In this document: positions 7,192-31,841 of the stretch, piece after piece
Layout: each line of letters opens with the position of its first letter
Numbering within the stretch: the stretch's first letter is position 1
Assembly: GCA_963706795.1 (NCBI GenBank)
Contig: OY970170.1
Location: forward strand, 270,001 to 302,000
Length of the DNA: 32,000 nt
Source: Candidatus Saccharimonadota bacterium
GTDB taxonomy: Bacteria > Patescibacteriota > Gracilibacteria > BD1-5 > UBA2023
Reading direction: 5' to 3'
Made by a program: the position numbers and the translations under genes
The notes under the pieces: model-generated
What the model saw: the letters and a program-made list of their open reading frames with translations, nothing else
What the model was told of the DNA's origin: nothing
The model's database searches: none

Positions 7192-7542
7192 ATGAATACG
7201 CCTATCGAAGTAAGTACCAAGAATGTAAATGATGTCATGGTATTTGAGTTCACTGGTGAGCTCGACGAGACGAATGCTGACAAAACATTCACTTCTATTT
7301 ATAACGCAATCGGTGACTTTGCAGGGAAAAAAGTCCTCTTTAATCTTGCTGGGCTCAAGTATCTCAACTCGAAGTCTATCGGATACATCGCTGATATCTT
7401 CTCAAATATCGAAGACGGTAATGGAAAAATGACGATCTCTAACATGACCGAGGAAGTAAAAGATACTCTCGAGCTCGTAGGAATCACGACTATTATCCAG
7501 ATCGCCGACAACGAAGCTGACGGACTCGCCATGATGGCATAA
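7192..7542 (+). CDS. STAS-domain protein (SpoIIAA-like anti-sigma-factor antagonist), 116 aa
   Basis: MNTPIEVSTKNVNDVMVFEFTGELDETNADKTFTSIYNAI...LFNLAGLKYLNSKSIGYIADIF...GKMTISNMTEEVKDTLELVGITTII is the canonical STAS pattern, including the L.yinS.giG phosphorylatable-Ser region. The track's upstream extension to 6994 overlaps the FemAB-family gene and is rejected. Confidence 0.85.
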   Translation: MNTPIEVSTKNVNDVMVFEFTGELDETNADKTFTSIYNAIGDFAGKKVLFNLAGLKYLNSKSIGYIADIFSNIEDGNGKMTISNMTEEVKDTLELVGITTIIQIADNEADGLAMMA

Positions 7543-7556
7543 ATTGTCAAGCAATT

Positions 7557-7583
7557 AAAACCGCCCGAATAGGGCGGTTTTTT
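7557..7583 (+). terminator. Rho-independent terminator
   Basis: aaaa ccgccc gaata gggcgg tttttt. Confidence 0.85.
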
Positions 7584-7631
7584 GATTTATGGGAGATTTT
7601 CTGAGAAGATAGATGAAATCAATACCCATCT

Positions 7632-9332
7632 ATGTCAGAAAAAAATACGAACGATATTGCGTCTACGACCGTAGAGCAGGCTTCTACAAAGAATGAAGTT
7701 CATCCTGTCTTCACCGAAAAGCCACAAACTCGTGAGCAGATTGGTCTCAAAGCGGCTAATGATCGCATTCGCATTCTTCAATGAGAAGAGGCAAAAATTA
7801 CGGATATCGAGCGAAAGCGCGAGATCCGTACTCAGATCAATTCGATCCGTCGTGAGAGCAATCGCAACGCACAAAAGGATGCCTATATGAATCCGAGCCT
7901 TTCTCAGGATGAGAAATTTTCGGCACGCGCAAAAGAACTCCTTGGGGATGGAGCGCTCGACACGGTTTCGGCGAAGAATCTTCTCACACTTGAGCGCACA
8001 CGACGAGGATCACTCTCGAAATTTTTTGCTTTTAAAAAGACCGTAGATGCTCAGGGTCTCGACCTCGAGGAGCCTCTCGATATAACAAAAGTAAAAGAAG
8101 GTGACGATATTGTTATCGATTTTTGACGGAATTCTGGTGCAGATATCAAGGTCGGTGCAGGTGATCTTCTGCCAATGAACATTAAAGCCGTCTCTATTAC
8201 GGACAATCATGGTCGTGTTCGAGTAGGTGTTCGATCGATCGCAAGTGGCAAAGTAGGATACTACGATGCCAGCGGATATATGGAAATCCACAATGGATAC
8301 TCCATTCACGTCCTCACCGAAGCAGAAACAAAGGCAGCGGTTGGCGCACTGAGTAGCACAGTAACTCTCAGTACTGACGAAACCAAAGAAAATGAAGCAA
8401 TGGATTCTTTTATGGAACAGGCAGATCGATTCCCTTCTCTTGCTCAGAGACTCACGGGAGCAAATATCGATCAATACAAATCATACCAAGAAAAGGCCAC
8501 AGCACTCGCAAAACAGATCGAATCAGAAACCGGAATCCCGTGGCAAGTAACCTATGGACAAGCTACGCTCGAAACCGGTTACGGACAGCATGCCCCAGGC
8601 AATAACTACTTTGGCATGAAGGGATCTGGTCAGTCACAGACCACTAAAGAGGTTATCAATGGTGTTGAAGTCACCGTAAAGGCAGGATTTAAAACCTATG
8701 CCAGTATGGAAGAATCTTTTGCGGACTATGCACGACTTCTCTCGACAAATGCGCGCTACAAAGGTGCATTCGAATACAAGAATGATCCCAAGGCATTTCT
8801 CCAAACTGTTATTGCTGGAGGATACGCGAGTGATCCAGCCTACGTCTGAAAAGTAGAAGCTATTTGGGGGGATTTTGATCGCATCCACAATGCAACAACT
8901 GAGAGTGTTGCAGGAATTCAGATCAATCCAGATATCAAAGTAAAACCAGATACACTCATTAGCTACGCAGAAGGCTATCTTGGTATGAAATATCAACTCG
9001 GGGCTGATGGCAAAAATGCAATTGACTGTTCACAGCTTGTCGTCGAATCCCTCAAAAAGGCAGGAATGGTAGATACTGGTTTTGACACTACTGCCGCAGG
9101 CTTTCATTCAATTGCAAAACACAAAAATCCACACGAAGTACAGCGATGAGATCTCGTATTTCTGCGTACTGGTAGCAAGATTACCCATGTTGAGATCGCC
9201 ACTGGTCCTGCAATAAATGGAGTCATCCCAATCCTAGATGCAAGCGGACGAAGCAACGCCGGCAAGGTTGCCTATCGCGAGCAACCAATTGACGGCCACG
9301 TCATAGTCGGAACACCACCGTTCTATGCATAA
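7632..9332 (+). CDS. Bifunctional peptidoglycan hydrolase: N-acetylglucosaminidase (FlgJ/Glucosaminidase-type) domain plus C-terminal NlpC/P60 endopeptidase (566 aa, table 25)
   Basis: One frame stays open from the ATG at 7632 to the TAA at 9330-9332, across TGAs at 7782, 8124, 8847 and 9147. The middle region GIPWQVTYGQATLETGYGQHAPGNNYFGMKG...ESFADYARLL is the glucosaminidase motif. The C-terminus YLGMKYQLGADGKNAIDCSQLV...EVQRGDLVFLRTGSKITHVEIA is NlpC/P60 with its catalytic Cys and His. Confidence 0.85.
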
Positions 9333-15959: not shown

Positions 15960-18542
15960 ATGTACAGCGCCCGAGAGTCACCTTATGCACTCGAGTCTAT
16001 TCCTCAGAAGAGTTTTTCGCTGCGCGAAACAGCGCTTGCACTCTTTGGTGAAAATCAAGCGCGTAAAAAATCCTCTACCTATGAAAAATTCAAAGCAGAC
16101 TGGAAGCGAGATGCAAAAAAGCGACTTATTCTTGGTGTCACGCTCGCGGGATGAGCGATCATTGCAACAGCAACTGGAGCTACCGCTATAGCTGGCGCCA
16201 TGATTGCCACACGAGCTGCGATTGGCGCGATCTGAGGGTTTATCACCACCGAAGCGGCCTTTGATCTCGGAGCCCAAAAATTCGACGGATGAATGTTTAA
16301 AGAGCTCCTTCGTACAATCGAAGAATCCGACAATTTTGAAGAAGTACTCGAGGTGATTGCAAGGATCGAAAACGATCAGAGCATCGCCGATCTCGAGGCA
16401 GCATTCCAAAAGGCCGAAGAGAAAAACGAGCGTTTTAAGATGATACGCAAAATATCCGCCTGCACAGTTGGTGCTGTCATGTGAATTATTGGCGGATCTC
16501 ATGTGGCTGAGGCAGTCAATTGATTACCGACTATATCAGTCCAGTCAGAAATACATGCATCTCAAATTGCAGAAGTTTCTGATGTTCCAATTACTGATGA
16601 TATTTCTCCTGTGCCTCAGAATCTCAGTATTGAAAATACAGGAGATACTCAGCAGCAGCCCGTTACAAACAAACTCATAGACGAAGTATTTGCTGATATC
16701 AGATCCGATCACCCGACGCAAAATTATATTACGCTCGAACAGGCAGTGCGGCGCATCGAATGACTCAAACAAGGAATTTCGCTTACTGAAAGTGAAAAAC
16801 TCATTCCCATGAATTCGAGTATTTCATCACTCATACATGATCCGGACGGAAAAATTGTCCACATTATGAAGGATCTCGGATACCAAAATCCCAACGAAAC
16901 CGTTGATCACGCAGCTCGCAGACTGAGTTCCGAAAAAATACGCGTGATTCTGCAAAAATATTATGAAGAGGCACCACCAATCGAGATCGAGCAAGTATGA
17001 AGTCCTTCCTTAACTCAGCAAATCAGCATTCCGGAAGTCGCCTCAGAAGAAATTCATGAGAATATTGAGATTGCTCATCCCGAAACTGTAGTAACAGAGA
17101 TCGCAAAAATCGAACCAACCGCGATCCAAGTGTCATCATCCAATTCCCTGCTCTATACAATTGGTGCCTCAGTTATTGCGGTAGGAGTTGCGCTCGGCCT
17201 CATCTCAAAAAAGAAAGCGCGACAAACACGGGTTTCAAACTCAGATACTTCTGTTACAGCAGGACCGCCAGAGCCTACTACGACAGCTCCGAACACTACA
17301 GAAGAAGAGACATCATGAGCTCACATCACAGATACTCCCACAGAAACAACGATCCCTACAGAACCACCAACAGAAGTGTCTACTGAGTCTCCTTCGCAGC
17401 CAGACACTTCTGAGACCGCGGAAGATGCAAATCTATCAGACTCACTTCCTACAACTGAGACATTTCCTCCTGTAAATAATGCCGCACAAAAAACTCATAC
17501 TCCAAGCGCGGAAATCGCTTATGAATGAACACTCTACGACGAAATAGAGACAAGTCTTACCGAATGCTTTGAATGAGATTACAAATGGGTACGAGATGAT
17601 TCGAGGCAGCTTGAGACGACATCGGAGCGACGACTCGTCTTCATTGGGAATACGATTGGTGGAAACTTTGACGCACACGTATTACTTTCTGGATCGACCT
17701 ATCGAATTGCCATCATATGGTACGAAGATGATACACCCATCCATCATGAGGATTCAGGTATTCTCTCGCTCGAAGATATTCCGCAAGGAAGCAAGCAACA
17801 AGAATACCTGAGCCAAGAGATTGATGACGTCTTTTTTAGACTCCTTGATTTCCGTGAGGCGCAAAAAACTGCCGAGATGCGATCTCTTGAAAGTGTGGGG
17901 ATGTATAGAAGTGACCTCGCGAAAATATATGAGCAACTCGAACATCCAGAAATTCTTGCAAATAACTGGGAAACGGGTGGTTGGTGGTTCATGGATTGTT
18001 ACCGCATCAGGAATGGACACATCACCATGATCAATCTCAGAAATCCACCATTTGAAATCCTGGAAGTTTCATCGGTAGAGATGTCACTTCAGAAAAATGA
18101 AGCAGGATATAGCTATTTTAAAAGGAAGGTTGAGGATTTTATATCACTGAGTTACAGCGCAAAAGAGACTCTTTGGGCGATGCGACGCTACTCTGCAGAA
18201 AAACTTACTCATCCAAATGCGCTTCCTCCAGTGGGTATGGTATTTGATTATAACTGGCACAAACACTGTTCATCAACTCTCATGCACCCAAGTGGCGGGG
18301 ATATCAACGAAGCAGCGCCAGAAGCCTTTATAAAATCACCAAATCTACAGACATTTACATGGGCAATCGTCACGCCACTCTCGAGATCGGACTATATTCC
18401 CATGAGTCATCAGGTCATCTTTGGAGATGGTGCACGCAAATACGTACTGAGCCTTTGGGCTCTCAATAGAGATCCAGAGGACATTCATACCCGATATACT
18501 TACGAGGATCTGCGAACGATAAACGTTCGCATCATCGACTAG
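15960..18542 (+). CDS. Large membrane protein (860 aa, table 25): N-terminal Gly/Ala-rich TM region, a second TM, a Thr/Pro/Glu-rich linker and a C-terminal globular domain with a JAB/MPN-like metalloprotease motif (putative)
   Basis: Frame 0 is open from 15960 to the TAG at 18540-18542. It has 10 in-frame TGAs and no TAA or TAG (parsed codon by codon) and links track ORFs 15960, 16293, 16809, 17130 and 17877. The TM helices are AIIATATGATAIAGAMIATRAAIGAIGGFITT and LLYTIGASVIAVGVALGLISKKKAR. The C-terminus has NNWETGGWWF...ITMINLRNPP...VGMVFDYNWHKHCSSTLMHPSGGDI. There is no obvious SD, so the start is uncertain, and internal starts cannot be excluded. Confidence 0.6.
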
Positions 18543-18548
18543 ATTCCA

Positions 18549-18614
18549 GCACATTCGTGTGCCGGAAGGAGGGCGTTGCGCTATCGCTCTCCTTCCGGTG
18601 CAAGAATGCACCGG
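18549..18614 (+). promoter_or_regulatory. GC-rich structured intergenic element with mutually exclusive hairpins (possible attenuator, terminator or cis-regulatory RNA)
   Basis: H1 is gcaca-ttcg-tgtgc (18549-18562). H2 is ccggaaggag (18562-18571) pairing with ctccttccgg (18589-18598) around a 17-nt loop. H3 is ccggtgca-agaa-tgcaccgg (18595-18614). H2 and H3 compete for ccgg at 18595-18598. H3 is followed by attgttcatt. Confidence 0.4.
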
Positions 18615-18649
18615 ATTGTTCATTAACACTCTCAGAGAAAGGATACATC

Positions 18650-19156
18650 ATGCACTCTTTTTGGACTTTGCTCAAGGCAGATTTTCTTGCGGAGACACTG
18701 TCAAAAGTGCTCTTCTCAGGGAAGTACCCAAAACTGGTAGCGTTCATTATTTTGTTTTTTGTAGGCATCTATTTGTGTCTACGGCATCTATTGAGACTGA
18801 CTACTTGGATGGGACATTTGCCATTTAAGACTCAGTGGGTTCGAGCTTTTCGTTCGATCAAACAAACGGCAAGTGTGGCCAAAAAATTAGGCGACAAGGT
18901 GTCTCCTGCGGGCGGTAATAGTGACTATTTTGAGCTCGTGATTACGGGTTCAAATTGGGCACAACAAATCCACACGATACGCTACAGGATCAACAAACGA
19001 ACGGGGCTTTTAAATATTGTATTCTTACGACAGAATACCGAATTTCAGGCACATTATGCTTTTTTAATTCAGCACGCTGGCTTGGAACCTGGGTTCGAAA
19101 TGATCGCAGATTCCCTTCCACGTATTCATCAAAAAATCCGGACTAATTTACTGTAG
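18650..19156 (+). CDS. Hypothetical single-pass membrane protein (168 aa); first gene of the E2/E1 operon
   Basis: The ATG at 18650 follows gagaaaggatacatc (an SD-like AAAGGA). The TM helix is KLVAFIILFFVGIYLCL. The C-terminal domain of about 100 aa has no recognised family. Stop is TAG, 8 nt before the next gene. Confidence 0.55.
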   Translation: MHSFWTLLKADFLAETLSKVLFSGKYPKLVAFIILFFVGIYLCLRHLLRLTTWMGHLPFKTQWVRAFRSIKQTASVAKKLGDKVSPAGGNSDYFELVITGSNWAQQIHTIRYRINKRTGLLNIVFLRQNTEFQAHYAFLIQHAGLEPGFEMIADSLPRIHQKIRTNLL

Positions 19157-19164
19157 GAGTTATC

Positions 19165-19413
19165 ATGAAATATATCATTGTTATTCTTTTTGTGCTCGTG
19201 TTTGCTGGATGTTCAACGCCAATGAATCAGACGCAATATTCGTCACCACAAAGGGTCAATTATACACAGAGGAACGAAGTACGAACCTCACCTTCCGCCG
19301 AATTCGATCTGGCCGAATATCTTTCGGAATTCTACCGAACACCGCAAGTGGTGGAATCACAGAGTCCACGCCTCAAAAAACGGCTTGATCGGATCAAAAA
19401 AGCAACGGAGTAA
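19165..19413 (+). CDS. Small lipoprotein (82 aa)
   Basis: SD taggag, the lipobox MKYIIVILFVLVFAGC and a TAA stop. The next gene starts 3 nt later. Confidence 0.7.
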   Translation: MKYIIVILFVLVFAGCSTPMNQTQYSSPQRVNYTQRNEVRTSPSAEFDLAEYLSEFYRTPQVVESQSPRLKKRLDRIKKATE

Positions 19414-19416
19414 ATC

Positions 19417-20307
19417 ATGAAAATCTATATTTTTTGCCTGCTTCTCTTCCTTCCATTAAGTATTTACGCGAAGGAGTCGGCAAATATTGCCAGCATGAGA
19501 ATCTATCTAGAAACCATCAATCAAATACGAAAGGACGAACGAATCAAGGCTCAAAAGATATATGCGGCTTTTCGAGCGGGTGAACTCGATGAAGAAGATG
19601 CGGAGAAGGCATTCGATAAAATCGATACCCGAATCGAAACACTTAATAAAGAGAAAGAGTACATTGAGCAATCAATCATCCATGAACAAAAGAGCCTAGA
19701 TACCGTATCTCAAGATACTCCTTCTCCGCCTGTTGTTCCTGCTCAAGTGCTAAATATTTCTGCTTCAGATGCTGCTGCAAATCTGGACTACCCTCAGGTA
19801 AAAACTCCAACTCAGCCGCCTGCCCCGATTGTGAGACATGCGGGTTTAGCATTTTTGGATGGGGTTTTATATATCGGTCGGTTTATCCTGATCGCATTTT
19901 TTGTTGCCGTAACTGCAATCGTTGGAATTAAGGCCTATGTCTCAAAAACAAAGCCCAAAGAAACGACTGTGGAGACTCAAAGAATCCATTCAATCCGACA
20001 AATTGGAACATCTACACCTCAAAATCAAGAAGCTTTTACCTCAGAAACAAGCATTGTTCAGGCAGAAGAGGAAATTGAAGTTATAGATATTTCGTCCGAA
20101 CCCGAAGTTGCTGAAGAAATCAGTCCTGAAGTCATCACTCCAATTCCCGAAGCAGTAACGACGCCGACGGACACCTTGGACTCACCTCAGATTTTTGAAA
20201 CAACCGAAACAGTGACACTCGTGGACACGGATATTTTTGCAACGAAAGTTACTGAACATCCAGACATCCAGAATAGGCGCCATAGCGGCGAAATCACAAA
20301 CATCTAA
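19417..20307 (+). CDS. Hypothetical type-I membrane protein (296 aa): signal peptide, coiled-coil ectodomain, TM and an acidic Thr/Pro/Glu-rich cytoplasmic tail
   Basis: The signal peptide is MKIYIFCLLLFLPLSIYA. The helical region is RIYLETINQIRKDERIKAQKIYAAF...TRIETLNKEKEYIEQSI. The TM helix FILIAFFVAVTAIVGIKAYV is followed by SKTKPKE (positive-inside). The tail reads EPEVAEEISPEVITPIPEAVTTPTD.... Confidence 0.7.
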   Translation: MKIYIFCLLLFLPLSIYAKESANIASMRIYLETINQIRKDERIKAQKIYAAFRAGELDEEDAEKAFDKIDTRIETLNKEKEYIEQSIIHEQKSLDTVSQDTPSPPVVPAQVLNISASDAAANLDYPQVKTPTQPPAPIVRHAGLAFLDGVLYIGRFILIAFFVAVTAIVGIKAYVSKTKPKETTVETQRIHSIRQIGTSTPQNQEAFTSETSIVQAEEEIEVIDISSEPEVAEEISPEVITPIPEAVTTPTDTLDSPQIFETTETVTLVDTDIFATKVTEHPDIQNRRHSGEITNI

Positions 20308-20326
20308 TTTTCGAAAGGAATGTTGT

Positions 20327-20794
20327 ATGGAAGATACAGAATCTCTCCCAAACTGGATACGGCAGAATCCTGAAAGATTTCAGAAAAGACTCAAAGAGGA
20401 AGCAAAACTCCTCTATAAAGATTTTCCAAATCTGGGATTTTATCGAGATGGTCTTGTATTATATATAGAAGGACCGGTTGTCTCTCGAAGTTTTAACGCA
20501 TACAGAATTCGTGTGCGCTATCCCGAAGAGTATCCATACGCCCCAGCAGAAGGCTATGTGTTAGACCAGGATGTCCGTGATTATGCAAGAAACATAAGTG
20601 CTCATACACTTCATCATTACGGCGATACTGGGGATGAATGGGGTATGCAGCTCTGTTTGCAAGATATCAGCGAATGGAAGATCAATGACTCTGGTATTTC
20701 GATCGCGCAGTTTACGATCTTGTGGCTGAATGCTTATGAATTTTTTCGAATTAAGGGTTACTGGCCCCTCAGGGCTGGTGATTCAACATTTTAA
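20327..20794 (+). CDS. Ubiquitin-conjugating-enzyme (UBC/E2)-fold protein, prokaryotic E2-like (155 aa)
   Basis: SD aaagga precedes the start. The sequence aligns by eye along the whole UBC core. The N-terminal helix is RLKEEAKLLYKDFPNLGF. LYIEGPVVS...YRIRVRYPEEYPYAPAEGYVL corresponds to I.GP...pY.gg.f.l.i.fp.dYPf.pP.v.F. HHYGDTGDEWGMQLCLQDISEW corresponds to HPNi...G.ICLdiL...W, with the candidate catalytic Cys at 20654-20656. Confidence 0.75.
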   Translation: MEDTESLPNWIRQNPERFQKRLKEEAKLLYKDFPNLGFYRDGLVLYIEGPVVSRSFNAYRIRVRYPEEYPYAPAEGYVLDQDVRDYARNISAHTLHHYGDTGDEWGMQLCLQDISEWKINDSGISIAQFTILWLNAYEFFRIKGYWPLRAGDSTF

Positions 20795-20812
20795 AACAAC
20801 AAGGAGTAGATC

Positions 20813-21862
20813 ATGAAAGAAGAATACAAAATCCCTGGAATGCCTGATGTCGGAACACCTGGCAATCGCAGAAACATTCAAACAGAAGCACTCGAAAACA
20901 TGTTTCGAGAATTCAATAATGGTGAAGGTATGCTCATCACCCGAGAAGGTATGCCTATAGCCAAAAGCACGCTTCCTGGTAATCCGTCTGATTTTGCAGA
21001 ACTTCGCAATATTCGGACAAGTATGGCGGATGCAGACATTGCATCTAATCCGTATCATGCACCCAATCCACGCCGTGATACACTGATGCCACCTCTGCGT
21101 GGCAAATGTATGACGATCGTTGGTTTGGGTGGAGGAGCTAATATTCCTATTGAGCTCCTCAAATGTGGCGTAGATCATTTTCATTTGATTGACCATGATA
21201 TTCTGGAGCCGGCCAATGCCATTAGGCATCCCTGCTCCAAGCGATATTTTGGACTTCCAAAAGTCGAAGCCGTCAAACTCCATATGCTCGATCTCACTTC
21301 GCAAGAAGTCGAGATCACGGCGCATAACTACAATGTGTTTGATGACCGCAAAAAAACGATCGATATCATCGAGCAATCCGATGTACTCATTGTTGCGACT
21401 GACACCGAAGCTTCTCGGCATTTTCTTAATGAAATCGCAGTTAAAGCAGGTGTGCCAGCTGTATTTGTGGGTATGTTCGAAAATGGTTCTGGTGGCGAAA
21501 TCTTTGCCGCCTTGCCGGATGCGCCATGCTATTGCTGCCTGGCAGAACATCTGGGTCGCGAAAAATTCCTCACAGAATACCGCGAAACCACCAAAAAAGC
21601 GGACTGCAGTTCGGCCCGTGACACCTCAGCAATGCCGGCTCTCGGTATTGATCAGGGGCTTCTTGCGCTCATTGCAGCTCGTAAGTCCGTGGATATCCTT
21701 CTCTCTGGAGTGCAACACTCTCTCCCTCCACTCGGAGGTAATTGGATCATTTTTTCGATTTTCGGTATTCCAAAAATACTCGAGACATCGCTCTCATCGA
21801 TCCAATCCGACCTCACGCGACATCCTAAATGTTTCGCGTGTGGCGAACCAACGCTCACATAG
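20813..21862 (+). CDS. ThiF/MoeB-family E1-like adenylyltransferase (349 aa)
   Basis: A strong SD (aaggag) precedes the start. CMTIVGLGGGANIPIELLKCGVDHFHLIDHDILEPANAIRH...GLPKVEAVKLHMLDL...VEITAH...SDVLIVATDTEASRHFLNEIAVKAGVPAVFVG...GGEIF...PCYCCL aligns with E. coli MoeB: the nucleotide loop GLGG.G, the D.D....sNl.R motif, the ..TDn Asp and the first CxxC. A second CxxC (CFAC, 21830-21841) completes the zinc tetrad. An N-terminal extension of about 95 aa is uncharacterised. Confidence 0.85.
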   Translation: MKEEYKIPGMPDVGTPGNRRNIQTEALENMFREFNNGEGMLITREGMPIAKSTLPGNPSDFAELRNIRTSMADADIASNPYHAPNPRRDTLMPPLRGKCMTIVGLGGGANIPIELLKCGVDHFHLIDHDILEPANAIRHPCSKRYFGLPKVEAVKLHMLDLTSQEVEITAHNYNVFDDRKKTIDIIEQSDVLIVATDTEASRHFLNEIAVKAGVPAVFVGMFENGSGGEIFAALPDAPCYCCLAEHLGREKFLTEYRETTKKADCSSARDTSAMPALGIDQGLLALIAARKSVDILLSGVQHSLPPLGGNWIIFSIFGIPKILETSLSSIQSDLTRHPKCFACGEPTLT

Positions 21863-21880
21863 TACTAAAGTGTGCAGCGT

Positions 21881-21912
21881 AAAATATCCCCTTCAACCGA
21901 AGGGGATATTTT
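21881..21912. terminator. Bidirectional rho-independent terminator between the E1-like and UPF0489 genes
   Basis: aaaa tatcccctt caaccg aaggggata tttt. Confidence 0.8.
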
Positions 21913-22621
21913 AATATTCAAAAACTCTCTTGAGCATATCAATTGCACGCGCTTGATCGATAAAAAACGGGCTCGTCGCGATCGTGATACATGAAACCTG
22001 TGAGGCAAAATGGAGAATGACTTCTTTTTTGAATGCAAAATCAATATCGTTGAGCTCAGGAGCAAAAAAATCAAGATCGAGATTAAGGATCGAATTTTTT
22101 GAAATCATCGAATGGCGCTCACGCGTAAGATCGCCTTCTCATTCGATACGAATCATCCGCCCAATGAGGCCTTCAGCCATGGCAGGCTTTATATAGTTGC
22201 CAACATTGCACTCAAAATTGGTAAATTCAAAGACCCTCCCCATATCGAGTGAGTCAGGTTTTTGAAGTGTGAAGGTATTCTCCCAAAGATCCGAATGCTC
22301 ATCGATGTGCACAAGGGTCGCCCCATCTTGGAGAATGCCATTTGATCGTGCTTCGTACCAAAAATAGAGCGCATGGTTGTGGTTATCAAAGATCGTAACT
22401 GGAATACCATTCCATGAGGTTGAAACAAAATTTTTGAGTCCATACGCCTCAATGCAACGACCATCATCCTCAGCTACAAACACAAGGTTTTTGCTCTCGC
22501 GCACGTCATCAAAACTTCATTTAATAAGTCCTGGTACCACCAATGCACCTTCCCATCCAAGTGGTGCAAGAGCACGATTCCCTTTTAAATCCGTGAGGAG
22601 GAACGAGTCACTATAGTGCAT
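21911..22621 (-). CDS. UPF0489-family protein (236 aa, table 25)
   Basis: Track ORFs 22139..22504 and 21911..22108 are in frame and joined by the TGA at 22139-22141. The frame extends upstream through the TGA at 22517-22519 to the ATG at 22621. The motifs FDNHNHALYFWY, LVHIDEHSDLW, NVGNYIKPAMAEGLI and LNLDLDFF match my recollection of UPF0489 (C5orf22-like: DH.e.L..., HfDsHpDl, LDIDLDfF). Confidence 0.65.
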
Positions 22622-23192
22622 GGCCTGACTCAAAAAGCGCATGAAGCTCTACAAGAGTAGACTCGATGTCCTCATTTACGATGCGAATATCATAAAAATG
22701 TCGCTCTTCCATCTCGACGAGTGCATTTGCATAGCGGATTTCGAGATCTTCAGGAGAATTCACACCACGTCCAATAAGCCTTGATTTGAGGACATCAAGC
22801 GATGGTGGCTCAAGAAAAATACTCGTCACTTCATATCCTGCATCCTCGAGCACTGGCTTGAGATGAACCATGCCTTGAGGATCGATGATATAGAGTGGTT
22901 TCTTACCAAGCTCTACAATGCGCTCAAGCTCCTCAAAAGTCGAGCCGTAATAGTTTCCATGCACAATTGCATATTCGATGAGTTTTTTGTCATGAATCGC
23001 CTCCTTAAAATTATCAGCGGACCAAAAATGGTAGTGTACGCCATCCACTTCTCATGGCCTCACTGCACGGGAAGTGGTAGTGATTACTTTTTCGATGCGA
23101 GTATCGGGATGTTCATATTTGTAAGTCTCCCAAACGGTGGTTTTACCAACGGCAGAAGGTCCTGAAAGAATGAAAACGTGTGGCTGATTCAT
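22611..23192 (-). CDS. gmk: Guanylate kinase (193 aa, table 25)
   Basis: The ATG at 23192 gives MNQPHVFILSGPSAVGKTTV...ITTTSRAVRPGEVDGVHYHFWS...YAIVHGNYYGS.... The P-loop and the TTR..RpGE.dG.dY.F motif are both present, with the RPGE Gly encoded by the TGA at 23052-23054. Its end overlaps the UPF0489 start by 11 nt. Confidence 0.92.
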
Positions 23193-23201
23193 AGAGTGAA
23201 A

Positions 23202-24308
23202 TTATTGCGCACTGATGATGAGGGCTCGGTTTTCAACCTTGCTCCACTTACGCATCCATTCTGAAACTGGATATACGTGTCGTCCAGTATATACATCCCA
23301 TACGATAATATGTGATGGTTTTTCGGGAGTTCCATAGTATCCCATGAGGATAAATGCATGCTCGCCATTCCAAGCCTTTACTTCGATTTTTTCAAGATTA
23401 GGTCCGATGTATGACCAGTTGAGAGTACGATCCTTATCTAAGCTCGCACAAACATTTTTGGCATTTACACCGAGCGTGTTGGCTTCGCGGGTAGTTACTT
23501 CTGAAGCAAGTCCATCCTCAGCATTTGGATCTGTACACCAGTCACCCCAGAGCTGCACTCTCTTGCCAGATTTTATAGCAGTGAGTACTTCTGTAAGACG
23601 CTTTGAGACATTTGCAGTTTCTTGCGGAAGTGCGGTAGTGAGATTATTTTTCTTGTAAAGTTCAGTGATCGGAGTTTCGTATACTCCATATCCAGTCATC
23701 TTTCGCTGACTTCCATAAATATCACCCACGAATCCTGCATCTGGATTTCCCCAAATACCGAACTGGTCTACACCGAGACCATAGTACTGCTTCAAGATTG
23801 ATGCTTCGAGCATATCTTCTGTGACCGGAGCCTGAGTCATCGTAGTGATCACCGCAGAAGTTGCAGAAATCTCACAGCTTAGTGGACGCTGTTGAATACT
23901 GAGTCCACTAAATGTCTTGGTTGTATCAAATACTTCTCCGGTTGGCAGAGTATTTTTGTGACTCTGCACCTCCATAGTAATCTGTCTATTAAGTTTGAGT
24001 TTCGATTTATTCAATGCACTAAGCATCGGAGTAGTAAGTTTCGTATTTGCGACTACGCGATCGATTCTTCGTGTTGTTTCGAGCATGAAATCCAGTCGAT
24101 CAATCGTTGGATTTTGAGCGAGGTACCCGTAGTACTTACCGAAATCTATATTCGATCGAGGGAAAAGGATCGCAAGACTTCCGCTTCATTCTGCTGGATA
24201 GCATGACATCGTCGAGCCTGTTCCACTACATGTCGCAGGGCTCGCTGCAAATGCTGTCGAAATACTTCATACAAGGAGAACTGCTGCTACCAAACAAATC
24301 CGCTTCAT
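23202..24308 (-). CDS. Secreted C39-like (Peptidase_C39_2/YvpB-like) cysteine peptidase (368 aa, table 25)
   Basis: Track ORF 23202..24086 extends upstream through two TGAs to the ATG at 24308. This gives the signal peptide MKRICLVAAVLLVGSISTAFAAS. SIQQRPLSCEISATSAVITTM has a Q...C nucleophile context, and WNGEHAFILMGYYG provides the His, consistent with the C39-like papain fold. The subfamily is not certain. Confidence 0.6.
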
Positions 24309-24399: not shown

Positions 24400-27300
24400 T
24401 TATTCTACAACAACTTCCTTCCCTGCGCTTCGTCCGAAGACTTCTGAATTTGAGAATTCAAATACACGACTTGGGCGGACGGAATACGTACCTGCATGGG
24501 TCATACGAATGGTATATCCAAATCCATAATCCCCTCCATTCATCGAGTCTGCAGTAGCAAAATATCGATCATCACGATATTCTTCGTGGCTAAAGAGTTG
24601 CGTGCTGTAACTGTCTATTTCATGTCCAAGATTTGAAGCACGCGGACCTGCATTATCTGGAGAAGTCGGCACATTGATCGCGCTCGTATTCGCAACATCT
24701 TTACTCTCAGTTGCGAGCACTGTATTCACCAGCTCGGAACCTGCAGGAATAAATCATTCGAAGGCTGGTTGGCTGCGATCCTCGCTCGTGATGAGACGAT
24801 TATATGCGTAGACGAGATCACCGATCTTAAATTTAGTCTGTGTCGTGAGATAGGTCACGATCTCTTTCGGATATTTAAGTGCGCTGTATTCGATCTCACC
24901 ATTTGCATATTTTGCCCATTCTTCATTTTTGAGGGCTTCTATTTTTTTGAAATCCTTGAGGAGATAATACGTTGTATCAACATAGAATCCTTCATCTCGA
25001 GCAGCAATATTCTTAGCTGGAATCGTGTATGCAAGTGAGAGATCGTAATAGAGGGTTCCCTTTCCTTCCTTCTCAAACGTAAATGTCGTGTTTGTAGGAA
25101 GCGAAGAAGCCAGCATATTTTGTGAGAAGACTCCAAAACGGTCACTTCCTGTAATTTTTTTCTCAACGAGGAGATTGCCATCGGATTTTACACGGGCGAT
25201 CATATCGACATTTTTGAGTTCGCCAGTGCTTGTGAGATACGTCCCCAGCGCTCGAATAATTGCGGCGGTTTCTTCGGTAGTTCCGTAGCTTCCATCAGAA
25301 TTTTTAGTATTGAGGAGGAAGCGATTCATATTATCAAGAACCATATCAACATCCGTAAACGAAGATCGTCCGAGCATAGTTACTGCCTCGATAAATGACG
25401 CGGTATTTTCGATACGAGAATATTCTCCATCACCCCCAACGAATGCTCCGCGAGGATTGATCACTACATCATTTTTAAGAATCGTATCGATGCGTGATTT
25501 TGCCTCCACCTGCATAGACTTTTTGTCTGTCTCTGGGATATCTCGTTGTGCTACAAGCACTGCAATCGTACGAAGCTCTGCAAAAATATCAGAAGGCGTA
25601 AACTTAGAATTATCGATGAGCTTGTACATCTTGAGAACTTCCGTGTCTGATGGAGTAATGGCAAGAATGGATTCTATAGCTGCAAGGCGATAAGATTCTG
25701 GATATTTACAATCGTATGTCGGCTTTGGAATGCAACCCTCAAATTTACCATCATAGAATCGAGATTTGAGATATTTAATAGCGTTGGACTCGAGCTTTTG
25801 ATCGATCGCAAATCCGAGTGATTTGAGGTCAGCGAGTGTGCGAACCACATACGACGTGAGTTTAAAATCCGCGGTCGTGTTATTGGTTGTATTCCAATAA
25901 ACAAATCCACCAGAATTTTTCTGAACATCACCGATCGTTGCAATATAATCGAGCATCGTTTGCTTGATCGAAACATTCGTATATCCCGTTTGTGCATCGA
26001 CATATCTTGGTATCGTGTGTGTGACAAGATCAAATGGCTCACCAATGGCAGTATAGAGTTTTTTGAGCTCGATATTTGGCACAAGCATACTCGTCTTTTG
26101 CCATGTTCCGCCGTATGGATATTCATTAAGCTGCTTCATTCCCTGTGCGAGCGAACCAAGGAGCGACGTGCTGTAATTGATCTGTACTCGTGCATCTTTT
26201 GAGAGACCACCGAGCACAAGTCGCTCGTCGACAGATTTATCTGTAGTCTTACCAATCGTAGCCGTACGCTCAGGAGTAGACGGCATGAGAATAGGAAGAA
26301 TATTCTCCACCTGATCTTCATTGCCCTTGGCATCGACCGCCTTAAAGGTAATCTTTGAAGCAAATGCTGGTGCTTCGTCGAGATTAGAATGTGGTACAAG
26401 TTTAAATCGAGCAACGGCAGATTCACCATTTTTGATGAAGAGTTTTGTACCACCTGTATCAATGTCCGCATTATCAGCACTCGCAGTGATCGTGATATTT
26501 GCATCTTCACCCGTCTTATTAAAGATCACTGGTGCGAGCATAACACTATCGCCAGACACTAGGAATCGTGGAAGATTCTCAGATACGAGCACCGCCTTGG
26601 TAGTCATGATGCTGGTCTTACCCACGCCGATACGATTATCGACTGGAGTTGATACTACCGACTCAATGACCCAAGTTGTGAGATTATCCGGAAGCTTATC
26701 CGCCGAGATTTTTGCCTCACCGTTGGCGTCGGTACTAAAATCAGATTTCCAAAATGCAGTATCCTTAAATACTCCTCGCTTCTTTTTGGCATCACCTCAT
26801 TTTGTACCATCTCCGGCACCTCCCTTCTCACCATTTCAGGTATTTTTTACCTCGAGTTTTTCGATGAGATTAACCAGTGAGATATGAGTAGTAACGCCCA
26901 GATAGCGTTTCATGTCATAAAAGAAGGCAAACGGATTTTTTTGTGGATTTCCCATGAGTGCGAGCACACTCTCATCAACGATCGAGAGTGAACCATTCGC
27001 ATCTTTTACCGGATTGCCATTTGCATCCTTCACCCTAACAGTCACATCAACCGCATCACCTGGCAGATATCGAGTCTTGGATGGGATAACTTCTACAGAG
27101 AGTTTTTTGTCATCCGATATCACCTTGAGTACCGCGAGTGCACGCTTGTAGACTGGTAGTTCCATCTTGTCGTCCTGACCGATGAGGTAGACCTTTACGT
27201 AGACATTGGGGATATAGCTCATCTGGATCGGCACCTCAATGCGCTCTGTGTAGCTCGTAATATCCTTGGTATAGCTATCGAGGATGGCTTCATCTTTTTC

Positions 27301-30300
27301 GATCGAGACAAAATATTTGCCCGTTTTGACTGGAGATTTGAGTGTGAGTACTGCAGTCTCACCTGGCTTCAGAATATTTTTTTCGGCCACAAGATCTGTG
27401 ACAGAATTATTCCCATTATTCCAGAGCATATAGCGGTCAGACTGGACGTAGATAGTACGAGAAGAGACGAATGTCTTACCATTTGCTCCCGTGTAATTGG
27501 CACGAATTTCGTATTCACCATCAGAGTCCGTTCGGAAAGTAACTTGGAATTCCCCTGAGTCATTAGATTTTACATCGATATCTTTTTCTTTCTTCTCTTC
27601 TACAGCGTAATCATCATAGAATATTCCATCAACTCATTGTTTTTTGGTCGCTTTCCATTCGCGGTGAATAACTTGGACTATAGCTTTTGCGCCCTTTTTA
27701 CCCACAGCATCATATCCGAGGATGACACCATCAACACGGATATCACTGTCTTTTGGATACCAATATCCTCATCTCAGTCCAACGTAACCATCAGTAGTAT
27801 GGAGAACTTCGGTATGAGATTTATTGACAGTTTTTTGCGTGTCAGGATCTTTGACCTCTACATTGTACGTGTAGAGTTTTTCACCATTTGGATTGTCGCC
27901 ACCATTTTGGTCCTTATCCGCTTTTGGATAGTCGAATGTAAATGAGCCATTTCCATTTTCATCGATCTTGCCATCACCGGTAGTGATCGTCATATCCGAA
28001 TATGCACACACTCCCCAATAGAGACAATCAAAATAATCATATCCACTTCCAAATTGGTAGTCAGAGTATTTCTTCGCATCAAAGAAGTAGTTCTGAGCGA
28101 GCACTGAATAATGAAACGAAGTGTTCACCATCTTGCCACCAAAATAGTATTCACTCGAGATATTCATCTTGGTAGAGTCACCGAGAAAATGATCCTTTGA
28201 TTCAGAGGCTACAGCCACCTTGAAGGTCGGTTTTTTGTAGGCTTCGATATAAAAACTCGCGTCATTATAGATATAGGCTCCTGCGTCATTAGTTGGCCCA
28301 TACATAAATTGATTACCGCCCTTGATATAGAGCTCGAACGAAATACGTCCAAAACTTGATTCGGTTGGGATCGTGAATTCTCCATGAAAATTCGAATTGG
28401 CATCGAGCGTTACAGGGAATTCTGTAAAGAGGGAACCATCTTCTTTGATGAGCCTGACTTTACCGGCTGTATTTTTAGATTTTGTGTACCCAGTTGGCTC
28501 AAATGTACGTAGAAGTCACTTGAATTGTATCTTGTCACCTGGTCGATAAATCGGACGATCTGTGTAGATATATGCAAAGTCTTTGACCATCGAAGATGCC
28601 TGACCTGAGATATATCCAAAATCGTAATTCCCAGCTTCATCCTCATTTGCAAGCACTGCATATTTGCCATCTTTTTCAGCAAGAATAAGTCGATGTGCGC
28701 CCGAGATTTCGTAGAGATTTTTAGATTTAATATATGTCGCTTTAAAGTCGGTATTCTCAACAAGATTGCCAGCATTGACTGTATACGCATGAAATGTAGC
28801 CCCTTCGATTACCTGTTTCCCATCAATCGATGTGAGGAAGAGATATTGCTTGTTTGCGCCAGCCTCGAGAGCCATCGCAAGACCAGAGCGCACATAGATA
28901 TTGAGGAATTCTTTGCCATCTAATCGACTCTTGCCTGATCCAAGATTATAACCACCAGTTGTACTCGCTCGTACAAACACAAATGGTGAATTAAATGGAC
29001 GACCGAGGACATCCTTCTCGATATCAAATCGATTATTCGTGATTGACCACGCCTTATTTGCAACCTTGAGTGTCTTTTTGATAGAAGTTCCTGCTGTGCA
29101 TTTTGGCTCGAATCATCCATTGTAGAAGTTTGTAAGATAATCCGCATATCCCGCAATATCCGTCTCGCAGATTTCAATATTAACTTCATTCAGATTGATT
29201 GTCTGCAAATTTGCGATGATCGGAAGACTGCTTGGGATCACATTAATATTCTTCGAAACCGGCGAATAGACATATTTATCAGCGTCCTTGATATCACCCG
29301 CTACAATACCCTTCTTTTCAAATGGCTGCGCAATAGGATTGCCTACCTGATCCCCAAGAGTTGGCTTGATACGAAGATCGTACGAACTATGTGGCTGAAA
29401 TCTTGTCCCGAGAACATAGGCGTATTTTCCTGGAATACTCTTACAAAGATCGACCGTTTGATAGATATTAGTAACTTCGTTATAGATAGATGTATCGTCC
29501 TCACGAATAGATCTGATTGGTGATTTTGGAGTCGTCTCAAATTGCGTCTCAAGACCATATGTACCCTGATATTTCGAAGTCAACGGACTTGTAAAATAGA
29601 TACAGCTCTCCGTATTTGAAACATATGTAAAATCGCTCGCTATAAACTTTGGTGCGGTCTTCATCTTTTCGACAATATCGGCCTTGATGTGTTCGTTAGA
29701 ACTGCGATCAATCGTAAGTGCATATTCGGTATCATCTGCGAGTTTTTGACCAATCTCACACTTGAGTCGGTATTTATCATCAACGAGTTTTTTAACTTTT
29801 TTGCCGCCTTCAAATGCTTCATTCTCATTTTGCGTATATGAGAGCTTGCATTCACTGCGTCCATCCTTGGATACAAGATATGGCTTAATCTTTGCAATAT
29901 CTATTTCTTCGCCAAATGAGAGCACAAAGAAGAGTTGGTTGCTCGGAATAATACGAGGCTTGCCTGGATCAGGTAGATCACTCATTTCTTTTGTATCAAT
30001 GAGTGCGCCTGTCTCACTATAAATCGATCGAAATACCTGTGTATTTTGCAAGAAATCAGTCGATCTAAAGTCATAACTCTTTGAGCCTGTCATCGCGAGA
30101 TTCCCACCAACTGGTGTAATAGAACCCGAAAACGTCACCTTGTAGTCACTCGAATACGCGAGTCCTGGACTCGAGTTCTTTACAATAAGAAATCTGCGTC
30201 CCGCATCAGCTGCACCGTTTTCTGTTACCGCAGTCACTCCAATGTCCTTTCCAAATTCTGTAACATGCAAGAGAGGAATAAGATCTGCCGTCTTCACTGG

Positions 30301-31284
30301 CGTATTAAAACTGAGTGGAATCCCCTTCAATGGAGAAAAATTCTGTGAAGGAGTTAACACTTCGAGTCTTGGAGTCTCAAAAGTAGCAGTTTTCGTCTCG
30401 GAAAGTGGATAAAGTAAACCTTCTCTGGAAGCTACCTTAATATCAAATTTTGTCGCGTATGGAAGTGGATTTGTTGGCACAAATTCAAGAATCGATCCAT
30501 TCGTCCAATTACATTTTCATTCCACTGCCGGAGTAATCTCGAGCGGACATGGCAGCGCATCTTTATTCGCCAAACTCGCAAGCGGAATCATTGGAATATT
30601 AAAAAGCACAACGATATTTTTACTCACATTTGCAAGTCGCCCATCAGGCATGATGCGCATAGCTTTTGCTCCAGCGATTGCCTCTATCTCGTAGGTGATA
30701 TCCTGTCCGAGCTTTGTTCCGTATTTGGATTTAATATCGCCTGAGAGAGTAATCGTGTAGTGATCTCCGATTTTAAGCTTGTTCGAGAGTTTGTAAGAGA
30801 TGATATTCCCATCTTTGAGAGAAGCTTCTCCTGCTACATATGGTGCAAATCGGACACTTTCTTTGGTGATCGAACCCGCATCGAGTTCTTTCGAAAATGT
30901 AATATCGATCGATGGTACGTCGTATGGAATCTTTTTGTATTCAAAGCTCCAATTACCAGCTACCACCGAAGGCGCAGCCAGGAAATATTGAGCACCAAAT
31001 ATTCCGACAGCCACAACAACAATCGCGGCAAATGCTCCAGAATATATCTTGGTATGTGCCATAAAGTTAGCACGAATCCGAGCAAAGAAGCCTTCGCCCT
31101 TTTTGATCTGAATGCCATCTTTAAGAAGCTCTTCTTTGAGCTTCATCGCAAATTGCTGGTCGAATTTTGTATCGGGTTTTTCGGCAAGCAGGGTTTTGAT
31201 GGCTTTCATAATTTCTTTTTTATGATCGGCGAGAGACGGGTCTACAGCGACGAGCTCTTCAAAGATTTTTGCAGCTGATTTCAT
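24400..31284 (-). CDS. Giant membrane-anchored alpha-2-macroglobulin-family protein (2,294 aa, table 25) with an anti-sigma-like cytoplasmic N-terminus and no thioester motif
   Basis: Seven track ORFs (30517..31284, 29113..30480, 28516..28980, 27769..28305, 26836..27429, 24754..26625, 24400..24729) share one frame (the 6885-nt span is divisible by 3). All gaps were parsed codon by codon and contain only TGAs, 8 in total (24754, 26797, 26836, 27634, 27769, 28516, 29113, 30517). Hallmarks are the MG2-like DRPIYRPGDKIQFKG, the A2M-domain RGVFKDTAFWKSDFSTDANGEAKISADKLPDNLTTWVIESV, the thioester-site context LNEYPYGGTWQKTS, and the C-terminal PAFEGFIPAGSELVN. The N-terminus is about 75 helical residues followed by the TM helix IYSGAFAAIVVVAVGIFGAQYFL. 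Confidence 0.85.
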
Positions 31285-31286
31285 AT

Positions 31287-31841
31287 CTAAAAAAGGAAAA
31301 AGAAGAGGAACATAGCAATATTCGCCGCAATTTTTGCGAGCGTTCGAGAGATGATTTTTTTGACGTTTGAAAGGGATTCACCACTGATTTCTGCGATTTC
31401 TGCATATTTGAGATCGTCCCAAACTGCCATGAGCACAATGTCCTTATCTCGCACCGGAAGGGTTTCGAGATAAGCAAGGACTTTACCAAGACGCTCTTTT
31501 GCATCTATCGCACTTGCGTGGTCAGTCTGCTCTCCGAGAGACTCAGCGTGATCATCGAGTTCTTCATGCTGCTTGAGAGTTCGAGAGCGATCGACAATCG
31601 TGTTATACGCAATCCGAAAAAGCCACGACGCGAGTTCGGATTCGGACGAGCCACCAAAGCTTTCAAATGATTTCAGCGCTTTATAAAACGTATCCGAGGC
31701 AATTTCTTCGGAAGCGTCTCGATCGAATGTTCGATAGAACGCAAAATCGTAAATACGCTTGATAAAGGAATCATAGATTATCCCAAAAGATTCTCTATCT
31801 CCTGCGCGAAAAGATTCGATGGCAGACTCTAATTTTTGCAT
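31287..31841 (-). CDS. ECF-type sigma-70 family RNA polymerase sigma factor (184 aa)
   Basis: MQKLESAIESFRAGDRESFGIIYDSFIKRIYDFAFYRT...ASEEIASDTFYKALKSF...ASWLFRIAYNTIVDRSR is region 2. LETLPVRDKDIVLMAVWDDLKYAEIAEISGESLSNVKKIISRTLAKI is the region 4 HTH. I prefer the ATG at 31841 over the track start at 31889. The TAG stop is 2 nt before the A2M-family ATG. Confidence 0.85.
   Translation of the reverse strand: MQKLESAIESFRAGDRESFGIIYDSFIKRIYDFAFYRTFDRDASEEIASDTFYKALKSFESFGGSSESELASWLFRIAYNTIVDRSRTLKQHEELDDHAESLGEQTDHASAIDAKERLGKVLAYLETLPVRDKDIVLMAVWDDLKYAEIAEISGESLSNVKKIISRTLAKIAANIAMFLFFFLF

Follow-up and report, generated by a model that had tools for sequence, protein, structure and literature searches.

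We analysed a window of 32,000 nucleotides from Candidatus Saccharimonadota bacterium (Gracilibacteria, BD1-5, UBA2023; positions 270,001–302,000 of the forward strand of contig OY970170.1, assembly GCA_963706795.1) and found in it a gene cluster that appears to encode a membrane-associated protein-conjugation system. The functional unit covers positions 15960–21862 of the window and consists of the membrane-protein gene g0, a leader RNA, the envelope-protein genes g1, g2 and g3, and the genes of an E2-like and an E1-like enzyme (hereafter E2 and E1). Sequence comparison assigns families, folds and catalytic residues to E1, E2 and a JAB domain in g0, the fold of the JAB domain excepted, and the three predicted enzymes occur together with four envelope proteins in related genomes. 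We favour, with modest confidence, the reading that the cluster is a relative of the conjugation module of type II cyclic oligonucleotide-based antiphage signalling systems (CBASS) which has no nucleotidyltransferase of the cGAS/DncV type (CD-NTase), is split into separate genes and is tethered to the membrane, with the C-terminal tail of g3 as its likely substrate.

A first-pass annotation made from the letters of this stretch had described a five-gene operon bounded by a structured element and a terminator. The read-out of open reading frames (ORFs) and RNA folding returned the five + strand ORFs, their motifs, the hairpin (z = -4.6) and the terminator (z = -5.9) at the places given by that annotation (Table 1). 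The ORFs are separated by 8, 3, 19 and 18 nt, and each is preceded by a Shine-Dalgarno sequence (AAGGA, AGGAG or GGAG). The limits of the operon had to be redrawn. The upstream gene g0, which very probably encodes a membrane-anchored JAB protein, also belongs to the unit and lies between E2 and E1 in three other loci, and the structured element at 18549–18614 is a conserved internal leader rather than a boundary.

The window proteins were compared by tblastn with a set of 16 other system loci, here designated by L numbers, all of them from metagenome-assembled genomes of Gracilibacteria, Peribacteria or unclassified Patescibacteria and representing two genetic codes (UGA-decoding and code 11). 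We found that E2 and E1 are present together and always adjacent in 16 of the 16 loci. The g3 tail is found in 15, g1 in 14 and g0 in 11. The three loci in which g0 sits between E2 and E1 are L016, L017 and L019, and in L018 the C-terminal domain of g0 is a separate, stand-alone gene. The recurrence of the gene order in 16 other loci indicates that the cluster is more than a chance arrangement and bears out the earlier proposal that these genes co-occur in related genomes. We searched the literature and found no description of the cluster.

The E2 sequence contains the motifs YPEEYPYAPAEG and GMQLC(110)LQD and reaches 1.5e-8 against the E2 models for CBASS in PADLOC. Its membership in the Pfam family PF26395 (E2-CBASS) is marginal: this is its precomputed assignment, and a local Pfam scan gave no match at E<=1. 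A word-indexed homologue search with E2 returned the query itself only, and an exhaustive HMMER scan of 1.84 billion representatives gave 43 relatives (clusters) at E<1e-3. Conserved in the family alignment are YP..YPY.PP, a His, G..LC and W.P...WLHAYE. His96 and Cys110 are invariant among the 10 closest homologues. The Cys is missing in 5 distant members of a 30-sequence set (alignment A1: P0026, P0033, P0046, P0047 and P0053), which are presumably UEV-like and non-catalytic. When the family profile was compared with solved structures it matched 8hsb_B, the E2 of E2-CBASS, at 1.2e-9 and eukaryotic E2s at about 1e-4. An AlphaFold2 (AF2) model built on the family alignment reached pLDDT 94 and pTM 0.88, and all 50 matches listed by Foldseek against the PDB were E2 or UEV proteins (prob 0.96–1.00, TM ~0.45–0.5). 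The UBC fold and the catalytic Cys110 that the first-pass annotation had proposed for E2 are thus borne out by profile and model evidence, which also puts the protein into the E2-CBASS family.

Several other arrangements around E2 genes were observed. In L016 a 150-aa ORF (2350–2802) lies between E2 and g0, and its end (...TGKFILPQ) is similar to that of E2 (TG.WILPE), which may make it a divergent second paralogue of E2. Outside the clade, L103 has a related E2 alongside a Prok-JAB gene. A further uncharacterised architecture surrounds a related E2 in L104 (3780–7343) and L105 (693–4256), where a 306-aa Pro/Thr-rich protein, a 68-aa ORF, E2 (144 aa), ThiF (278 aa) and a 354-aa protein without matches are found. 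The 306-aa product looks like an envelope protein, with an N-terminal transmembrane (TM) segment and a C-terminal TM segment followed by a basic anchor.

The motifs of E1 are GLGGGAN (104–110), DHD (127–129), IRHPC (137–141), ATD (195–197), CYCC (239–242) and CFAC (340–343). E1 matches Pfam ThiF at 6.9e-21, and its best match in any library is to the PADLOC models of the CBASS E1-E2 protein Cap2 (8.7e-27), over their C-terminal E1 half. Matches to UBA5 (1.5e-8), MoeB (2.9e-8) and MccB (4.6e-5) are weaker. Across 15 E1 sequences (alignment A4) GLGGG, D127, D129, R138-H-x-C141, K150, T196-D197 and the CYxC zinc motif are invariant. Cys265 is likewise invariant within a KxDCxSxRD loop, and we infer that it is the catalytic residue. 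E1 thus has the nucleotide loop, the catalytic Asp and, behind the zinc motif, the putative catalytic Cys of a canonical Ubl-activating E1. These comparisons indicate that E1 is a dedicated enzyme of the ThiF fold whose nearest counterpart is the E1 half of Cap2.

The ThiF fold and the CxxC zinc motifs are also what would be expected if E1 were simply the ThiF or MoeB of this genome, serving sulfur transfer for thiamine or molybdopterin, and its place beside E2 were coincidental. However, against the NCBIfam ThiF/MoeB equivalogs E1 scores 37–55 bits where the cut-offs are about 150–650, and even the best of these scores, 55 bits, falls short of its cut-off of 159. The closest profiles of E1 are those of Cap2, no ThiS or MoaD gene lies nearby, and E1 is next to E2 in each of the 16 other loci. 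We regard this explanation, which would have counted against the first-pass annotation, as effectively refuted.

The adenylation domain of E1 is preceded by a conserved N-terminal module. We found that in three loci this module is encoded by a free ORF of ~85 aa between E2 and g0 (L016 ~545–805, L017 ~7360–7620, L019 ~8480–8740), and that E1 of the same loci has no such module and begins just before GLGGG. This pattern of fusion and fission suggests that the module is functionally tied to E1. E1 residue 93 aligns with MccB residue 111, and a stretch of ~95–110 aa therefore precedes the aligned region in both proteins. MccB acts on a peptide C-terminus, and its N-terminal stretch is presumably a peptide clamp. 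By analogy the substrate tail may be held by the E1 module. The last residue of the module is not Gly, and this speaks against its being a ubiquitin-like protein (Ubl) itself.

The comparable offset of the MccB match also fits a different chemistry, in which E1 would resemble MccB or the E1-like enzymes of ribosomally synthesised and post-translationally modified peptides (RiPPs). A C-terminal adenylate on the g3 or g1 tail would then be turned into an amide, a cyclised product or a thiocarboxylate, with E2 as a scaffold, perhaps together with the neighbouring gene g6, and no protein would be joined to another. The g6 product matches the peptide arginase OspR (8brp) at 7.7e-12, and its gene adjoins E1 in 12 of the 16 other loci. 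However, a thioester relay would suit the Cys and His that E2 retains and the presence of a JAB, and E1 resembles MccB less than it does UBA5 or MoeB, and much less than it does Cap2. Furthermore, 80 of 80 sampled metagenomic loci with g6 homologues (33–57% identity) had no E1, E2 or g0 within flanks of up to 6 kb, about half of these loci having several kb of sequence on the relevant side. We therefore consider RiPP-type chemistry improbable.

Reading of g0 depends on the genetic code. Long reading frames emerge in the window solely when UGA is read through. A UGA stands at the conserved Gly of the RPGE motif of guanylate kinase in the window, and in-frame UGAs across orthologous loci align mostly with Gly (62 of ~156). 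This indicates that the source organism uses code 25, with UGA read as Gly, as the first-pass annotation had guessed. Since g0 has ten UGA codons, it appears only as fragments to a reader of table 11.

The use of UGA is uneven over 15960–21862: in g0 it accounts for 10 of 46 Gly codons (22%) and in the five downstream genes for 0 of 55, with a window average of ~5–10%. A foreign origin of the five genes was considered (0 UGA observed, ~4 expected, P ~0.02) and rejected, the signal being too weak. In UGA-decoding relatives TGA also stands exactly where other orthologues have TAA or TAG, after a conserved C-terminus. Such terminal TGAs occur in L005 g1 (~6234), in g3 and E1 of L008, in g1, g2, g3 and E1 of L010, in E1 of L017 and in g2 and g3 of L019, where g2, g3 and E2 merge into a single open frame. 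Either these proteins are extended by read-through, which would be of consequence where a tail needs a free end, or UGA is context-dependent in these genomes.

With code 25 g0 is an 860-aa protein with a basic N-terminus, a TM hairpin (~aa 56–101), a helical segment, TM3 (~165–187), an ectodomain, TM4 (397–417), a T/P/E-rich linker and a JAB/MPN+ domain (~aa 563–860). A segment of ~200 aa between TM3 and TM4 (DIRxDHPxQ...) is conserved. From the positive-inside rule the N-terminus, the helical segment and the JAB domain would be cytoplasmic and the ~200-aa segment would lie outside. The only invariant polar residues of g0 are in its C-terminal ~300 residues. There the JAMM metal-binding motif E...HxHx7Sx2D (E671, H767-K-H769, S778, D781) is invariant in 11 orthologues, with E152, N246, W247, H248, K249, H250, P258, S259, G261 and D262 as the invariant columns of alignment A3. 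In PADLOC, 6 of 6 orthologues match CBASS JAB models only, at the JAMM motif and weakly (E = 0.001–0.05); Pfam Prok-JAB is matched by 2 of 11 members and RadC by one. Using hhalign we found the motif in register with E. coli YicR and, again in matching register, with a Pfam-validated Prok-JAB adjoining a related E2 (prob 81%, E = 1.2e-5). A word-indexed search with the JAB domain returned the query itself only. Taken together, motif and profile comparisons make g0 very probably a membrane-anchored, Cap3-like JAB protein.

We found no match to a CD-NTase for any cluster protein in PADLOC or Pfam; the sole 'cyclase' match (PDLC00816) aligns at the E2-like C-terminal end of a fusion model. Similarly, no cluster protein matched a known effector family (Pfam, PADLOC, NCBIfam) or a Ubl/β-grasp family (Pfam, NCBIfam), the TM proteins g0–g3 contain no recognisable sensor domain, and the cluster encodes no small protein ending in GG. 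These scans agree with the earlier statement that the operon has no CD-NTase, Ubl or effector that could be named.

The remaining proteins of the cluster are predicted envelope proteins. g1 has a conserved N-terminal amphipathic segment (FxxxKAEF), 1–2 TM helices and a domain of ~110 aa with an FGD motif, and its C-terminus is conserved (Y..LRxNxL, with Arg164 invariant). It gave no significant match in Pfam, PDB, NCBIfam or PADLOC. In g2 the lipobox Cys is kept in 7 aligned orthologues, and a basic helix at the C-terminus (L+RI+..TE) is conserved. In 12 orthologues g3 keeps one architecture, with a signal peptide followed by an extracellular coiled coil, a TM segment (154–175) and a variable acidic cytoplasmic linker. 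Sequence conservation of g3 is restricted to its last ~10 residues, which in 16 loci of both genetic codes follow the motif [HRK]-[SD]-G-x-[VI]-P-x-x-[LF]-x-COOH, in which the Gly never varies. Examples are HSGEVPDSLT and RDGVVPERLR, and the protein of the window ends in RHSGEITNI. In most loci seven residues follow the invariant Gly.

The cyclases of type II CBASS have a conserved, disordered C-terminal tail without a ubiquitin fold that is conjugated by Cap2 (PMC11153139, PMC10097602). One such cyclase is conjugated to PspA, and part of the cyclase is found in the membrane fraction (PMC11153139). Because these cyclases offer Cap2 a similar conserved end of a disordered linker, we propose that the g3 tail is likely to be the E1 substrate. 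In the mechanism that we envisage, E1 would adenylate a protein C-terminus in the cytoplasm, the C-terminus would be handed to Cys265 of E1 and then to Cys110 of E2, and it would finally be ligated to an amine on a target, which may, as the first-pass annotation suggested, be a component of the envelope. The JAB domain would undo the ligation, mature the C-terminus, or both. The activated C-terminus would be that of g3, either intact or cut by JAB behind the invariant Gly (HSG and EVPDSLT being the two sides of the cut), and it would be held by the ~72-aa N-terminal module of E1. The link between this reaction and something at the cell surface would run through the ectodomains of g0, g2 and g3.

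Several observations weigh against this scheme. E1 substrates usually end in Gly or Ala, and the last residue of g3 varies (I, L, T, R or S) and is neither. The code-11 loci L011, L012, L014 and L015 have no JAB within 8 kb, so if JAB exposes the tail Gly these four would need another protease. The JAB assignment is itself based on a motif and weak profile matches: a PDB profile search with the C-terminal domain of g0 gave no JAB match, its profile searches of PDB, Pfam and NCBIfam returned no significant match, and a single-sequence AF2 model of the domain had a pLDDT of only 30. The Cys-less distant relatives of E2 indicate that non-catalytic roles exist in its family. Moreover, the C-terminus of g1 is conserved as well, and the assignment of the substrate to g3 is therefore not unique. 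A Ubl may also be hidden in the 110-aa domain of g1 or in the N-terminal module of E1.

The variable last residue of g3, which is not Gly or Ala, would also fit tails that only dock. The tails of g3 and g1 would then recruit E1, E2 and JAB to the membrane, and the modifier would be a Ubl encoded elsewhere, the soluble domain of g1 or the ~85-aa module. In one clade the module forms a small protein of its own, and neither it nor g1 has an assigned fold. However, the free module and g1 do not end in Gly or Gly-Gly, no cluster protein matches a β-grasp family in Pfam or NCBIfam, and in most loci the module is fused to the N-terminus of E1, where its own C-terminus would be buried. We consider docking alone to be rather unlikely, and continue to favour the g3 tail as the substrate.

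Between g0 and g1 the transcript is predicted to form a structured leader. The hairpin at 18549–18614 folds at -43.6 kcal/mol and no shuffled sequence equals its folding; the g0–g1 spacer folds significantly in every locus. The first hairpin of the leader has 14 bp and a loop with the invariant sequence GCGCUAYCGC. In the second, which is variable, the 5' arm shares sequence with the 3' arm of the first hairpin. An invariant box, G-YUC(A/G)UUAACA (UCAUUAACA), lies 20–55 nt ahead of the g1 start (~20 nt in the window). In the JAB-less code-11 loci the leader follows an RNase J-like gene. Besides that of the window, copies were found in L002 (5835–5912), L004 (5979–6056), L005 (5633–5717), L006 (6760–6834), L008 (6414–6490), L009 (6258–6334), L010 (6342–6417), L011 (6574–6649), L012 (6581–6655), L014 (6651–6728), L015 (1986–2061) and L018 (5878–5956).

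In the alignment of these copies 96.7% of the cells of the hairpin are paired, against 51–59% when the partners are slid. Compensatory changes are seen in 7 of the 14 pairs, and none of 500 shuffles attains the observed figures. The G·U pairs are in keeping with a transcript of the + strand. A covariance model finds one copy per locus in 13 loci at 66–78 bits, always just before g1, and no other match below E = 0.4 in 723 kb. No Rfam family matches the leader, and the window contains no tRNA or Rfam element. By covariation, then, the leader is a predicted structured RNA motif that is operon-specific and undescribed. Its 5' arm carries a Shine-Dalgarno-like GGAG and its 3' arm CUCC. One may speculate that the leader acts as a translational or termination switch, which the overlapping alternative hairpins would suggest.

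A more far-reaching version of the tail model joins the leader to the envelope proteins. In it a TM protein would itself take the part of 'ubiquitin': the g3 tail would be matured by JAB and ligated by E1 and E2, the reaction would be gated from outside through g0, g2 and g3 and controlled by the leader RNA, and the whole would serve outside-in signalling in a CPR lineage of episymbionts. We put this forward tentatively, as a possibility that is more doubtful than credible.

The surroundings of the cluster bear on whether it is a defence system. An anti-phage, abortive-infection role would place it in the type II CBASS lineage, with membrane proteins in place of cyclase and effector, and conjugation or deconjugation upon infection would free a membrane-disrupting activity of the four-TM module of g0, of g1 or of g3. 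E2, E1 and JAB are indeed most similar to CBASS parts in the defence-system library, small TM proteins are common CBASS effectors, and the family is patchy and rare, as the 43 clusters among 1.84 billion representatives indicate. However, the flanks hold housekeeping genes (Gmk or Cmk, an RNase J-like gene, polA) or cell-surface genes, and no defence genes were found nearby. No relatives were found on viral contigs or plasmids. Gene order and leader RNA are kept across different genetic codes, and this synteny, together with the housekeeping flanks and the lack of viral or plasmid relatives, favours vertical inheritance over a mobile defence island. Furthermore, conserved ectodomains and a lipoprotein would be superfluous in an intracellular phage sensor. 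We therefore think an anti-phage function unlikely. The cluster looks like vertically inherited equipment of some Gracilibacteria lineages.

Table 1. Features of the cluster and its downstream neighbour, in window positions
Feature	Position	Strand	Basis
g0, 860-aa membrane protein, 10 in-frame UGA	15960..18542	+	code-25 translation
Candidate JAMM motif of g0, E671-T-G-G-W...N-W-H767-K-H769-x8-P-S778-G-G-D781	17970..18302	+	alignment A3
Leader element	18552..18630	+	13-locus alignment, covariation, covariance model
g1, 168-aa membrane protein	18650..19156	+	orthologues in 14 other loci
g2, 82-aa lipoprotein, lipobox FAGC	19165..19413	+	weak LPAM_1 match
g3, 296-aa bitopic protein	19417..20307	+	12 aligned orthologues
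g3 C-terminal tail RRHSGEITNI, candidate E1 substrate or JAB processing site	20275..20304	+	motif in 16 loci
E2, 155 aa, predicted UBC fold, E2-CBASS family	20327..20794	+	PADLOC, PF26395, profile, AF2/Foldseek
Codon (TGT) of predicted catalytic Cys110 of E2	20654-20656	+	family alignment; His96 conserved likewise
E1 N-terminal module, ~72 aa (EYxIPG...G-x-PGNR...NG...I-T-x-x-G...LRNIxTSM)	20813..21028	+	conserved in orthologues
E1 adenylation domain, predicted ThiF fold	21029..21862	+	Pfam, PADLOC, alignment A4
Bidirectional terminator hairpin, common to convergent g6	21880..21912	.	-21.4 kcal/mol, z = -5.9; terminator-like on both strands
g6, 243-aa peptide-arginase-like protein (UPF0489/PF12640), 2 UGA	21914..22642	-	PDB, Pfam

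The convergent neighbour g6 has intact metal motifs (DNHNH, HIDEHSD and DLDFF) and matches its Pfam family at 1.9e-9. We considered g6 as a dedicated component, either as a stand-in for a deconjugase or as the maker of an ornithine acceptor, and rejected it on the strength of the 80 metagenomic loci described above. It is probably a conserved syntenic neighbour rather than a dedicated component. The g6 family is widespread in metagenomic contigs (at least 367 matches), and we know of no role for it outside RiPP clusters. An RNase J-like gene of the metallo-β-lactamase/β-CASP type recurs upstream of the cluster in other loci. It was also rejected as a component, being absent from the window and resembling synteny.

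Other genes of the window and of related loci may relate to the cell surface. Both the window (24403–31443, - strand; 2347 codons from stop to stop, with 9 UGA) and L002 (10489–16867) have a giant α2-macroglobulin-like gene a few kb away from the cluster. An α2-macroglobulin gene also lies directly beside the distantly related E2-E1 pair of L104 (1–3572), an unrelated code-11 contig. This proximity could be a coincidence or a link to surface proteins. The window further encodes a secreted hydrolase of the cell wall that combines glucosaminidase and NlpC/P60 domains (7620–9329, + strand) and a Peptidase_C39_2-like protein (23205–24308, - strand), each with in-frame UGA, which may bear on an epibiotic or predatory lifestyle.

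In phage defence, conjugation of the Cap2/Cap3 type regulates cGAS-like cyclases, which is the role known for it so far. The cluster described here keeps a CBASS-like E1/E2/JAB trio without cyclase or effector, in separate genes, with predicted attachment to the membrane and an RNA leader of its own, and it is inherited across two genetic codes. If the tail model is true, 'Ubl-less' conjugation reaches beyond CBASS, and this would be the first case of bacterial ubiquitin-like chemistry coupled to cell-surface proteins. It would also give a handle on the surface biology of Gracilibacteria, whose host or prey relations are barely understood. In addition the cluster contributes four new protein families (the N-terminal part of g0, g1, g2 and g3) and a new RNA motif.

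The first-pass annotation had held that the architecture matches no described system. This stands in that no description was found, but the cluster is closer to E1/E2/JAB modules of the Cap2/Cap3 type than had been claimed. In type II CBASS, as here, a JAB partner is present, and E2 and E1, which give the closest profile matches, follow the order of the Cap2 domains. The candidate substrate is likewise a conserved C-terminal tail rather than a ubiquitin fold, as in the cyclase (PMC10097602, PMC11153139). In contrast to type II CBASS, the cluster has no CD-NTase and no nucleotide-activated effector (Cap4, Cap5, CapV or the SAVED/STING TM types). Two ORFs with 18 nt between them encode E2 and E1, which are not fused as in Cap2, so that by sequence all three defining features of CBASS, namely CD-NTase, effector and E2-E1 fusion, are missing. 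E1 has an extra N-terminal module, and the JAB, unlike Cap3, forms part of a four-TM protein that also has an ectodomain. The cluster adds three more envelope proteins and its own leader RNA, the candidate g3 tail does not end in Gly or Ala, and the context is chromosomal and syntenic rather than a defence island.

Other known systems share single features with the cluster. The operons of the Bil/Bub type and those described by Iyer, Burroughs and Aravind have separate E1, E2 and JAB genes in one operon, as found here. These systems have a β-grasp Ubl, are cytosolic and occur in defence contexts, whereas the cluster has no recognisable Ubl and has four membrane proteins. MccB and the E1-like RiPP enzymes that bear a RiPP recognition element (RRE) also have a ThiF fold after an N-terminal extension of ~95–110 aa, but the similarity of E1 to MccB is weak and MccB has no E2 or JAB partner. 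The best solved relative of E2 comes from E2-CBASS, or type II short CBASS (SmCdnG-SmE2; PDB 8hsb, 8yjy and 9kkb), with which it has PF26395 in common. In E2-CBASS there is neither E1 nor JAB, and E2 becomes covalently linked to the CD-NTase CdnG (PMC12948482). The cluster presents the reverse arrangement, in which E1 and JAB accompany E2 and the cyclase is absent.

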